Shown here: one piece after another, positions 21,482-22,043 of the stretch
Position numbering within the stretch: the first letter of the stretch is position 1
How the letters are laid out: every line of letters begins with the position of its first letter
From: Escherichia phage PDP46
Sequence record: PQ783785
DNA: 56,522 bases
Strand: one strand, 5' to 3'
Made by a program: the position numbers and the translations under genes
The notes under the pieces: model-generated
What the model was told of the DNA's origin: nothing
Database searches by the model: none
The model's input: the letters and a program-made list of their open reading frames with translations, nothing else

Positions 21482-21542
21482 CCTATTGTTAAGTCAGTGA
21501 CAGAACTGCATAGCAGACACTATCACTTAATCGGTCGAAAGA

Positions 21543-21573
21543 CGCCGGATAAACGTAACCGGCACATAACAGA
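21543..21573 (+). repeat. 31-bp direct repeat, copy 1 (CGCCGGATAAACGTAACCGGCACATAACAGA)
   Basis: Identical copy at 21687-21717, inside a ~560-bp non-coding stretch. Confidence 0.7.
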
Positions 21574-21686
21574 TAAGAGCATTGAATAATGTAAAGCTGT
21601 GCTGCGACGATTATCATACATCTCAGTGCTCTTATCGTTGTGGTGAATACGCAGGCTGATGCGTTAATCAGGTGAACGAGACACCC

Positions 21687-21717
21687 GCCGGATAAACGTA
21701 ACCGGCACATAACAGAA
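21687..21717 (+). repeat. 31-bp direct repeat, copy 2
   Basis: Identical to 21543-21573. Confidence 0.7.
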
Positions 21718-21789
21718 TCATTGTGGTGAATTGCAGTTCTCAGAAACAACCAGAAGATAAGCGCCTGGCACTGCAACCAAACACTCGCT

Positions 21790-21810
21790 GATAAGGAGGT
21801 GATCCTTATC
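21790..21810 (+). promoter_or_regulatory. Hairpin containing an extended anti-16S match (GATAAGGAGGTGATCCTTATC)
   Basis: TAAGGAGGTGATC is complementary to the 16S rRNA 3' end and is flanked by 8-bp inverted arms; a 17-codon TTG-initiated ORF follows. Confidence 0.4.
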
Positions 21811-21978
21811 TTGCTGGCGGGAAAGCCGCAAATCGTGGGTAAAGCATGTTGTGAAACATCCTGAACTGCGTGTCGTTTTACATAACTGGTTATTCACGTG
21901 TCACGCATAGGGGTATGTTGGGACGTCAGGTGTGGATGACCAGTTATGTAAAACCCTCATTATCACCCAGAGCCATTT

Positions 21979-22004
21979 GCCGTCTGTTTAAGACGGCTTT
22001 TTTT
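21979..22004 (+). terminator. Intrinsic terminator (GCCGTCT-GTTTAA-AGACGGC then TTTTTTT)
   Basis: Hairpin plus T-run just upstream of the gene at 22044. Confidence 0.65.
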
Positions 22005-22043
22005 CGTGCTAATATAACGAAAACATTTCTCACAGGTGATCAC

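Follow-up and report, generated by a model that had tools for sequence, protein, structure and literature searches.

A non-coding island of Escherichia phage PDP46 as a probable expression site for mobile structured-RNA modules

Described relatives of the island

The closest described counterparts of the element treated here, a non-coding island at positions 21482-22043 of a 56,522-nt sequence of Escherichia phage PDP46 (PQ783785; this whole stretch is called the window), are STnc100 and PasD, small RNAs (sRNAs) of lambdoid and Shiga toxin (Stx) prophages. The two have been proposed to be related (bioRxiv 10.64898/2026.05.13.724894), and PasD is known to be Hfq-dependent and was detected as a discrete RNA (PMC8550237). 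The window is that of a 9NA/Sasha-type siphovirus, with the island situated between capsid and head-tail genes, and over this region its nearest records, Escherichia phage KarinMuster_Bas82 (Bas82 in the following), AVIO78A and Salmonella phage Sasha, are 96-99% identical (BLAST). The 5' half of the island consists of units of an RNA module widespread in enterobacterial phages, while the 3' half is a lineage-specific structured RNA which displays GGAGGUGA in a hairpin. A sequence-only reading of the same DNA had suggested, among other things, a small RNA locus, and this suggestion is supported by a predicted promoter and terminator which are conserved, by helices covarying on the sense strand, by the architecture shared with STnc100/PasD and by a tRNA gene present at this site in relatives. 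We consider it fairly probable that the island forms a self-contained transcription unit for non-coding RNA, which serves as an expression site for mobile structured-RNA cargo in the 9NA/Sasha/Carvaje lineage.

STnc100 and PasD resemble the modules in that they form a four-way junction closed by UGGUGAAU...CACCA and are found in phage late regions; in both, the first hairpin begins 2-4 nt past the 5' strand and a 5-bp hairpin abuts the 3' strand. In contrast to STnc100, the island units have other sequences in the hairpins H2 and H3 (defined below), are shorter (77 and 58 nt), carry a hairpin H1 in front, which STnc100 proper does not have, and stand in tandem inside a longer transcript instead of forming separate genes, each with a terminator. 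The hosting phage also differs, a virulent siphovirus for the island units as opposed to lambdoid/Stx prophages for STnc100/PasD. The island stays below the gathering score (47 bits) of the STnc100 model RF02076 and gives no hit to it even at E <= 10. Units of the family with H3 = CCGGG-AGGCA-CCCGG reach 34.7-43.2 bits on this model over the junction domain, compared with 143 for a true STnc100, and these intermediate units also carry the family H1 and GUUGUGGUGAA. Because of the same topology, the same closing strands and these intermediates, we infer that STnc100 is one branch of a larger module family; for PasD the link is based on the cited preprint and the RF02076 scores. The island locus is a partly degenerate variant in this family, of which STnc100 is the sole branch catalogued so far. 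Taken as a whole, the family seems not to have been described, since it is not in Rfam 15 and a literature search for its core sequences returned unrelated papers only; the note on the 9NA genome is likewise silent on the island.

A second comparison is offered by phage tRNA clusters. It is known that T4 species 1 and 2 RNAs are stable RNAs co-transcribed with phage tRNA genes. The modules are likewise adjacent to tRNA genes and co-oriented with them, and in the trnA-trnT region of phage P1 four tandem units follow trnT, with the first core 70 nt past tRNA-Thr. The junction part of a unit (domain B) has cloverleaf topology, and some members possess a genuine T-arm, GUUGG-UUCGAUU-CCAAC, as H3 or within the variable top of H1 (var1); bona fide T-arms account for many of the var1 tops and for some of the H3 hairpins. 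Unlike in a tRNA, the junction is closed by a helix of 6-9 bp, has no consistent CCA and has loops which are not those of tRNA. In the tRNA-like Y RNAs known as YrlA, which phages and bacteria encode, a long stem is joined to a T-arm/D-arm module like that of a tRNA, and the YrlA genes adjoin Ro60 (PMC4201824). Several var1 inserts of the family resemble this design, whereas the var1 of the island is without a T-arm; identity with YrlA/Y RNA was rejected, as the modules gave no RF02553 hit and no Ro60/TROVE gene is annotated in Bas82 (50 of 58.5 kb covered). Finally, the predicted succession of promoter, untranslated structured leader, intrinsic terminator and late gene block is like that of the lambda 6S RNA / PR'-tR' late leader, and in HK620 a module lies within the annotated pR'-qut...tQ leader. 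The island differs from lambdoid leaders in that no Q-type antiterminator is annotated in Bas82, over the same 50 kb, and no qut-like element was identified, and in CUS-3 and E. coli 042 the module comes after the short leader terminator, not before it.

The predicted transcript and its modules

Consensus matches to a promoter and an intrinsic terminator, both conserved across clades, bracket about 510 nt of the island (coordinates of all features are in Table 1). The predicted promoter is the top sigma-70 match in 19500-23500 and was annotated at the same place by the depositors of AVIO78A. Its layout recurs in 9NA and SP069 (TTGACT...TATTGT/TATCGT) and in Klebsiella phage Carvaje (TTGACT-17-TATTGT), in which the 3' end of the upstream gene has a different sequence. 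Transcription would start near 21496, at the foot of a predicted 5'-terminal stem-loop whose inner hairpin CUGC-N3-GCAG is retained in 9NA (CUGC-GUU-GCAG) and Carvaje. The strong terminator which the sequence-only reading had placed just before the next gene is there and is kept in all clades, in contig L144 with a different stem (GCCCGUC/GACGGGC) at the same place; the Sasha record annotates a terminator at this position too. The predicted 509-nt transcript (21496-22004) folds with -172.5 kcal/mol, z = -5.4 in relation to shuffles.

Promoter, a conserved 3' core and terminator are the constant parts of the island in the lineage, while the cargo between promoter and core varies: there is none in 9NA, one minimal junction in SP069, and one to three units and/or a tRNA elsewhere. 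From this combination of constant frame and variable cargo we take the island to be a site dedicated to the expression of stable RNAs. In Carvaje, VLCpiS10a and the metagenomic contigs L140, L144, L191 and L192 the island holds a tRNA-Ser(GCT), which is placed after the last unit and before the 3' core. In the window itself ARAGORN found no tRNA or tmRNA gene, and RF00005 has no hit in the island. Among the IMG/VR instances listed, a tRNA on the same strand lies 83-470 nt away in 20 of 120, and any tRNA is present in only 24 loci.

The module family was defined here from about 130 distinct copies, in the alignment of which a unit reads CA(C/U)AAC - AG - H1 - GUUGUGGUG - AA(U/G) - H2 - var2 - H3 - CACCACAAC. 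H1 is a stem of 13-14 bp with an exchangeable top (var1) of 29-130 nt and H3 is a 5-bp hairpin with a loop of about AGAUCAGCA; as GUUGUGGUG pairs with CACCACAAC, domain B is a four-way, cloverleaf-like junction. Covariation was examined in 50 diverse family members over the helices P0, H1 and H2 (24 pairs), with 500 shuffles for comparison. The three helices are 93% paired, and double changes occur in 15 of the 24 pairs. Compensatory cells number 128, against 34 +/- 4 in the shuffles (none of the 500 reaches this value) and 16-39 with slid partners. When arms were permuted among 88 distinct arm combinations, the true partners had 1050 of 1144 cells paired, whereas the control averaged 844 and never exceeded 878. 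The arms had been located by complementarity, which biases the paired percentage upward but affects neither the compensatory counts nor the asymmetry between G.U (103) and A.C (10) in the arm pairs. This excess of G.U over A.C indicates that the structure is an RNA on the sense strand. The closing helix of domain B also covaries (GUGAUG/CAUCAC, GUUGCGGUG/CACCGCAAU), as does H3 (GCAGG/CCUGC, GUCGG/CCGAC).

The 3' arm of H1 (GUGCUCUUA/U) resembles the boxA elements of lambda (CGCUCUUA) and of rrn operons (UGCUCUUUAACAA). In the island GCUCUUA stands at 21628-21634 on the sense strand, and most family members have GCUCUUU or GCUCUUA, which would be in accordance with a Nus-factor site loading NusB/NusE so that a long untranslated RNA is made without Rho termination. 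We hold this to be very improbable: the motif is paired, is poorly kept (GCTCTT in only 51 of 111 distinct arm pairs) and is swapped by compensatory changes to unrelated sequences, and the two arms are equally conserved (13.2 and 12.9 bits of entropy). The resemblance to boxA is probably coincidental.

Outside this lineage the modules are widely distributed. The 68 nt at 21624-21691 are 98-100% identical (BLAST) to a segment of CUS-3, IME10, Huey and 167 of 5426 complete E. coli genomes, in all of which this segment has the Q antiterminator gene on one side and the holin gene on the other. The core recurs in 131 phage records, in 32 species-representative genomes, which are mostly Enterobacterales plus Aeromonas, and in at least 120 contigs of IMG/VR, and it is found inside the annotated late leader of HK620 and in the Ackermannviridae phage Magnus. 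Wherever it occurs, the module has the same orientation as the late or tRNA operon that it accompanies, and the Q-holin interval is its place in CUS-3, HK620 and E. coli 042. The same var1 top, GAGTCGATAATCGTGAAGAGTCGGCG.GCCTGGTTAGC, is present in AVIO78A (L001, Sashavirus), in the Klebsiella-clade contig L140 and in an unrelated IMG/VR contig (L104), which indicates that the variable tops are discrete shared cassettes and not random spacers.

Some further observations concern individual carriers. In phage P1 (L012, OP279344.1) the stretch from tRNA-Thr to tciA, at 1934-2830, is made up of four tandem units of H1 and domain B, and the hypothetical CDS at locus positions 2173-2346 lies within these units and is probably not a gene. 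In Klebsiella phage Magnus (L005, MN045230.1) tiny ORFs of 32-57 aa are drawn at about 1160-3300 over modules and tRNA-like T-arms, with one RF02076 hit (52.9 bits) at 3072-3286; this run of 2-3 kb looks like a long array of non-coding RNA rather than genes. The exact 27-nt core was also seen in the assemblies L164, L165, L166, L168 and L173, which are labelled Martelella, Geobacteraceae, Marinobacterium, Acidobacteriota and Noviherbaspirillum; such matches far outside Enterobacterales may be contamination or wide transfer.

In the island all elements of the 5' part of a unit (CA(C/U)AAC-AG, the 13-14 bp H1, GUUGUGGUG-AAU and H2) are present within 21565-21664. P0 and H1 together (21565-21642, inverted repeat I3) fold with -28.1 kcal/mol and z = -4.4, and 21637-21663 match the 27-nt family core exactly. 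The junction of unit 1 is completed by H3, a single A and then CAUAAC, which forms 6 bp with GUUGUGGUG (one G.U), and the 77 nt of its domain B fold on their own as a cloverleaf-like four-way junction. Unit 2 is without H1; its CCAG..CUGG hairpin, whose loop fits the family consensus, is followed by CACUGCAAC (9 bp, two G.U). It is homologous to the second unit of P1, GUUGUGAUG-AAG-UGCAGCUCUUUGAAGCAA-CCAGAAGAUAAGCAUCUGG-CUUCACAAC, and to the sole unit of SP069. Elsewhere in the window no further module copies were found: the two conspicuous copies of GTTGTGGTGAAT are both in the island, and matches with 2 mismatches are at chance level.

The sequence-only reading had also noted two identical 31-nt direct repeats in the island. 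These are present at 21543-21573 and 21686-21716, with a start-to-start spacing of 143 and not, as had been stated, 144 nt. No such pair is expected in shuffles, and the peculiar make-up of the island is real and not a chance observation. The hairpin of the first repeat occurs in Carvaje with a compensatory change (GCUGG-AUAAACGUAA-CCAGC), and Klebsiella phage Magnus has the same hairpin. The second repeat is contained in an 83-nt segment which has (A)TTGTGGTGAAT on either side and is found in PDP46 only; Bas82, AVIO78A and Sasha lack it, as does the metagenome contig L188, which is identical in other respects. The left part of this segment is a domain B of lambdoid type, which has its full length of 240 nt in the Sashavirus contigs L142 and L190. 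The repeats are thus module boundaries, each made up of the terminal hairpin plus junction of successive units, which were duplicated by recombination at conserved junction motifs; the second copy came with the 83-nt recombinant segment as a recent insertion.

It could be argued from such data that the junctions are merely "boundary sequences" for DNA exchange and that the island is a non-functional recombination scar, a dump of fragments without any role as RNA. The layout in the window is that of a truncated recombinant between TTGTGGTGAAT repeats, the cargo varies among near-identical phages, and the CUS-3 unit is situated exactly between the annotated boundary sequences bsq4 and bsq3. However, the compensatory covariation and the 10:1 ratio of G.U over A.C point to selection on a single-stranded structure of the sense strand and not on duplex DNA, the 27-nt core is identical across genera, and the orientation is constant in relation to transcription and tRNA genes. 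We therefore regard a mere scar as quite unlikely.

The 3' core and its possible roles

The 3' core (about 21783-21870) hardly varies among the clades of Sashavirus, 9NA/SP069 and Klebsiella phages, in contrast to the adjacent gene, which differs at many synonymous sites. Its consensus fold has three hairpins, and several changes preserve pairing: in hairpin 3 U-A to C-G and G-C to G.U, in hairpin 2 G-C to A-U (L191). The other variable sites are in loops, with one exception, a C.A in SP069. The sequence-only reading had described the full complement of the 16S rRNA 3' end as the loop of a hairpin. The 13-mer TAAGGAGGTGATC does exist, at 21792-21804, but it is not the loop, since it comprises five stem bases, the whole loop and one further stem base. 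Over the 56.5-kb window it is the sole site within 2 mismatches of the 13-mer anti-16S complement. Its GGAGGUGA part, the strongest Shine-Dalgarno (SD) match of the genome, is invariant across clades save for L192 (GGGGGUGA). Conservation does not extend to the full 13-mer, in place of which Sasha has GGAGGUGAC, and the hairpin of the Klebsiella clade is a different one. A search for remoter versions of the core, by the downstream protein in IMG/VR and by a 22-nt pattern in metagenomes, recovered the same lineage only.

The 17-codon TTG-initiated ORF reported earlier is present at 21811-21864, in frame with a listed GTG ORF at 21799-21864, and may be translated. Its eight variable sites carry four synonymous and six non-synonymous changes (P/L, I/T/S, C/R, T/I, S/F), two pairs of these sites being compensatory in hairpins, and conservation runs 8 nt beyond its stop, through AACUGCGU. 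Changes are thus not concentrated at synonymous sites and conservation does not end at the stop, as would be seen in a protein-coding sequence. The non-conservative codon changes, the preservation of pairs and the conservation past the stop indicate that the constraint is on the RNA rather than on the peptide.

Four rival explanations were considered, which in order of likelihood are a cis-acting attenuator, a ribosome-capturing RNA and the scar and boxA site already discussed. According to the first, the island is a leader of the head-tail operon in which only the 3' core and the terminator are functional and the upstream modules are passengers; a ribosome on the strong SD translating the 17 codons, or a factor on the three hairpins, would set the read-through into gp38 and the genes after it. 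In favour of this, nothing is constant in every clade, including the module-less 9NA, but the 3' core and the terminator, placed directly before the PHROG 21889 gene; the region that separates the high-copy capsid gene from the low-copy connector genes has a strong terminator on either side (21085-21108 and 21979-22004); and SD, TTG and stop are invariant with suitable spacing. Yet the distance from the stop to the terminator stem is 115 nt in the window and 44-47 nt in 9NA and the Klebsiella clade, so that a ribosome cannot mask it, and sequence inspection revealed no alternative antiterminator pairing with the terminator 5' arm. Moreover, an 80-nt near-perfect hairpin (-39.4 kcal/mol, z = -5.8), absent from 9NA, SP069 and the Klebsiella clade, could be inserted between core and terminator without loss, and with amino-acid changes this non-conservative the peptide sequence is not the signal. 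Attenuation is in our opinion a doubtful explanation.

The second, also raised by the sequence-only reading, concerns ribosome binding as such, which calls to mind STAB-SD elements, 5' ribosome-binding stabilisers known from Bacillus cryIIIA. Here the displayed GGAGGUGAUC would bind the 16S rRNA 3' end without productive translation, either as a protection from decay, as in STAB-SD, or as a late titration of 30S subunits. In the island, as in STAB-SD, an RNA that is translated barely or not at all carries a near-perfect anti-16S sequence; that this site is alone in the genome, that GGAGGUGA is kept across clades and partly unpaired in both clade-specific hairpins, and that the sequence after it is conserved at the nucleotide and not the peptide level all speak for such a role. 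On the other hand, the 13-mer is incompletely kept (Sasha has ...GGUGAC, L192 GGGGGUGAUC, and the Klebsiella clade lacks UAA), one phage RNA could titrate ribosomes only if its copy number were very high, and a start codon follows at proper spacing, so that ordinary initiation is enough to account for the SD. This normal spacing also sets the island apart from STAB-SD, as do its internal position and its host, E. coli with RNase E-driven decay. We find ribosome capture unlikely.

The favoured reading, coding potential and surroundings

If the island is an RNA expression site, as we favour, it would function as a stable or small-RNA operon. The RNA would be made late in infection as a single highly structured transcript reaching to the terminator, host nucleases (RNase III, RNase P, RNase E) would cleave it in the long stem of H1 and at the junctions resembling tRNA, and the stable small RNAs so released would act in trans, as is thought for the related Hfq-bound sRNAs STnc100 and PasD. 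The terminator would limit read-through into the low-copy head-tail genes.

Several points weigh against this. Both transcription from the predicted promoter and cleavage by nucleases are deduced from sequence features, and since the promoter overlaps coding sequence, part of its conservation may be due to coding. 9NA has no module between promoter and 3' core, which means that modules are dispensable for the role of the ancestral island. The domain B of unit 1 is a truncated recombinant of the 240-nt version, so this copy could be a degenerate passenger, and unit 2 folds no better than shuffles (z = +0.8). No Rfam model reaches the island units, either at the gathering threshold over the whole window or at E <= 10 over 21400-22100. 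Antisense targets of var1, var2 and core inside the phage were just 10-13-mers at chance level or on the wrong strand, and the function of STnc100/PasD is itself still hypothetical (PMC12370729). The sole hits at E <= 10 were suhB (15.8 bits) and STnc560 (13.7 bits), which we rejected as chance-level matches driven by the terminator.

More tentatively, and as a speculation which we do not expect to hold in full, all these results may be joined. The units of H1 and cloverleaf would then be undescribed, horizontally exchanged tRNA-like phage RNAs, with STnc100/PasD as one branch, excised by the nucleases that process tRNA and rRNA; they might be programmable carriers in which the variable tops are the seeds, or decoys that mimic tRNA and so act against translation factors or against host defences directed at tRNA, and the island of the 9NA lineage would be a docking site of promoter, cargo and terminator which swaps units and real tRNA genes. 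If the favoured reading of the island is correct, a stretch that annotators leave blank or fill with spurious ORFs is part of a large covarying RNA family, of which only the STnc100 branch is in Rfam and which joins virulent siphoviruses, P1, lambdoid and Stx prophages and Ackermannviridae. It would give an evolutionary frame for the prophage sRNAs STnc100 and PasD and explain the placement of tRNA genes in these phages. The system would also be tractable, as Bas82 is in the BASEL collection and natural variants with 0, 1, 2 or 3 units or a tRNA exist. Several deposited gene starts and small ORFs in such regions would be wrong.

As regards coding potential, the earlier statement that the island has no convincing ORF is upheld. 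No family in PHROGs or Pfam matches the reverse ORFs of 95 and 59 aa or the forward ORF of 30 aa, nor was a conserved coding gene found by homology in these databases for any ORF in 21482-22043. The 95-aa ORF, similar to one annotated in PJ16, was rejected for this lack of family support. The further suggestion that the island is the remnant of a lost gene finds no support: there is no protein family, no conserved frame (indels of 80 and 22 nt) and the substitutions preserve pairs and are not synonymous. A long ORF (21870-22454, 194 aa) does extend upstream from the next gene, but PHROG 21889 (136 positions) matches it from residue 59 only, which is the ATG at 22044. We rejected the N-terminal extension annotated in Bas82_0039, AVIO78A_052 and 9NA_042, as it has no family support. 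The terminator and the clade indels inside it, 80 and 22 nt and so not multiples of three, mean that the extended ORF is not a conserved reading frame. The starts deposited for these three genes lie 108-135 nt upstream, and family profile and indels favour the ATG at 22044.

Table 1. Positions of features in and around the island (window coordinates)
Feature	Positions	Strand	Remarks
Upstream flanking gene	PHROG 19242 match 21128-21478; gene end 21481	+	stop codon 21479-81
Predicted sigma-70-like promoter	21461..21489	+	TTGACA-17-TATTGT; 10/12 match; overlaps end of upstream gene
Predicted 5'-terminal stem-loop	21496..21527	+	AGUGA..CUGC-AUA-GCAG..UCACU; fold of 21496-21570, z = -3.3
Direct repeat, copy 1	21543..21573	+	terminal hairpin GCCGG-AUAAACGUAA-CCGGC and junction ACAUAAC-AGA; 3' end of partial unit 0
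Helix P0 and long hairpin H1	21565..21642	+	P0 CAUAAC/GUUGUG; H1 arms 21572-21585 and 21623-21636; var1 top 21586-21622
Unit 1, domain B	21637..21713	+	77-nt four-way junction: GUUGUG(GUG), AAU, H2, middle hairpin, H3, closing CAUAAC
H2 of unit 1	21649-64	+	ACGCA-GGCUGA-UGCGU
H3 of unit 1	21687-21706	+	GCCGG..CCGGC
Direct repeat, copy 2	21686..21716	+	H3 of unit 1 and junction to unit 2
83-nt segment	21638..21720, equivalently 21649-21731	+	11-nt placement ambiguity; flanks ATCGTTGTGGTGAAT, ATCATTGTGGTGAAT
Unit 2	21720..21777	+	minimal domain B without H1: AUUGUGGUG-AAU-...-CCAG-AAGAUAAGCGC-CUGG-CACUGCAAC
3' core	21783..21870	+	lineage-conserved; contains SD hairpin, hairpins 2 and 3 and the 17-codon TTG ORF
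SD hairpin	21790-96 / 21797-21803 / 21804-10	+	GATAAGG / AGGTGAT / CCTTATC; displays GGAGGUGAUC
Hairpin 2	21817-21829	+	GCGG-GAAAG-CCGC
Hairpin 3	outer 21834-38 / 21866-70; inner 21846-59	+	outer CGUGG / CUGCG; inner AUGUU-GUGA-AACAU
80-nt near-perfect hairpin	21875..21954	+	23-bp arms 21875-97/21932-54; Sashavirus-clade insertion
Intrinsic terminator	21979..22004	+	GCCGUCU-GUUUA-AGACGGC + U7; 40 nt before ATG 22044
Downstream flanking gene	22044..22454	+	first of head-tail block; PHROG 21889 profile starts at ATG 22044; outside the element

Two observations concern the flanks. A strong intrinsic terminator (21085-21108, a 10-bp stem with a T run) directly follows the major capsid gene and, together with the one at 21979-22004, encloses the small gene at 21128-21481. 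On the other side, the ribosome-binding site (RBS) of the downstream gene, AGGTGATC, is kept across relatives. At 22033-22046, where it reads AGGTGATC(AC)ATG, this RBS shares the rare SD extension GGTGATC with the hairpin of the island, and it forms a 10-nt palindrome with the region of the start codon.

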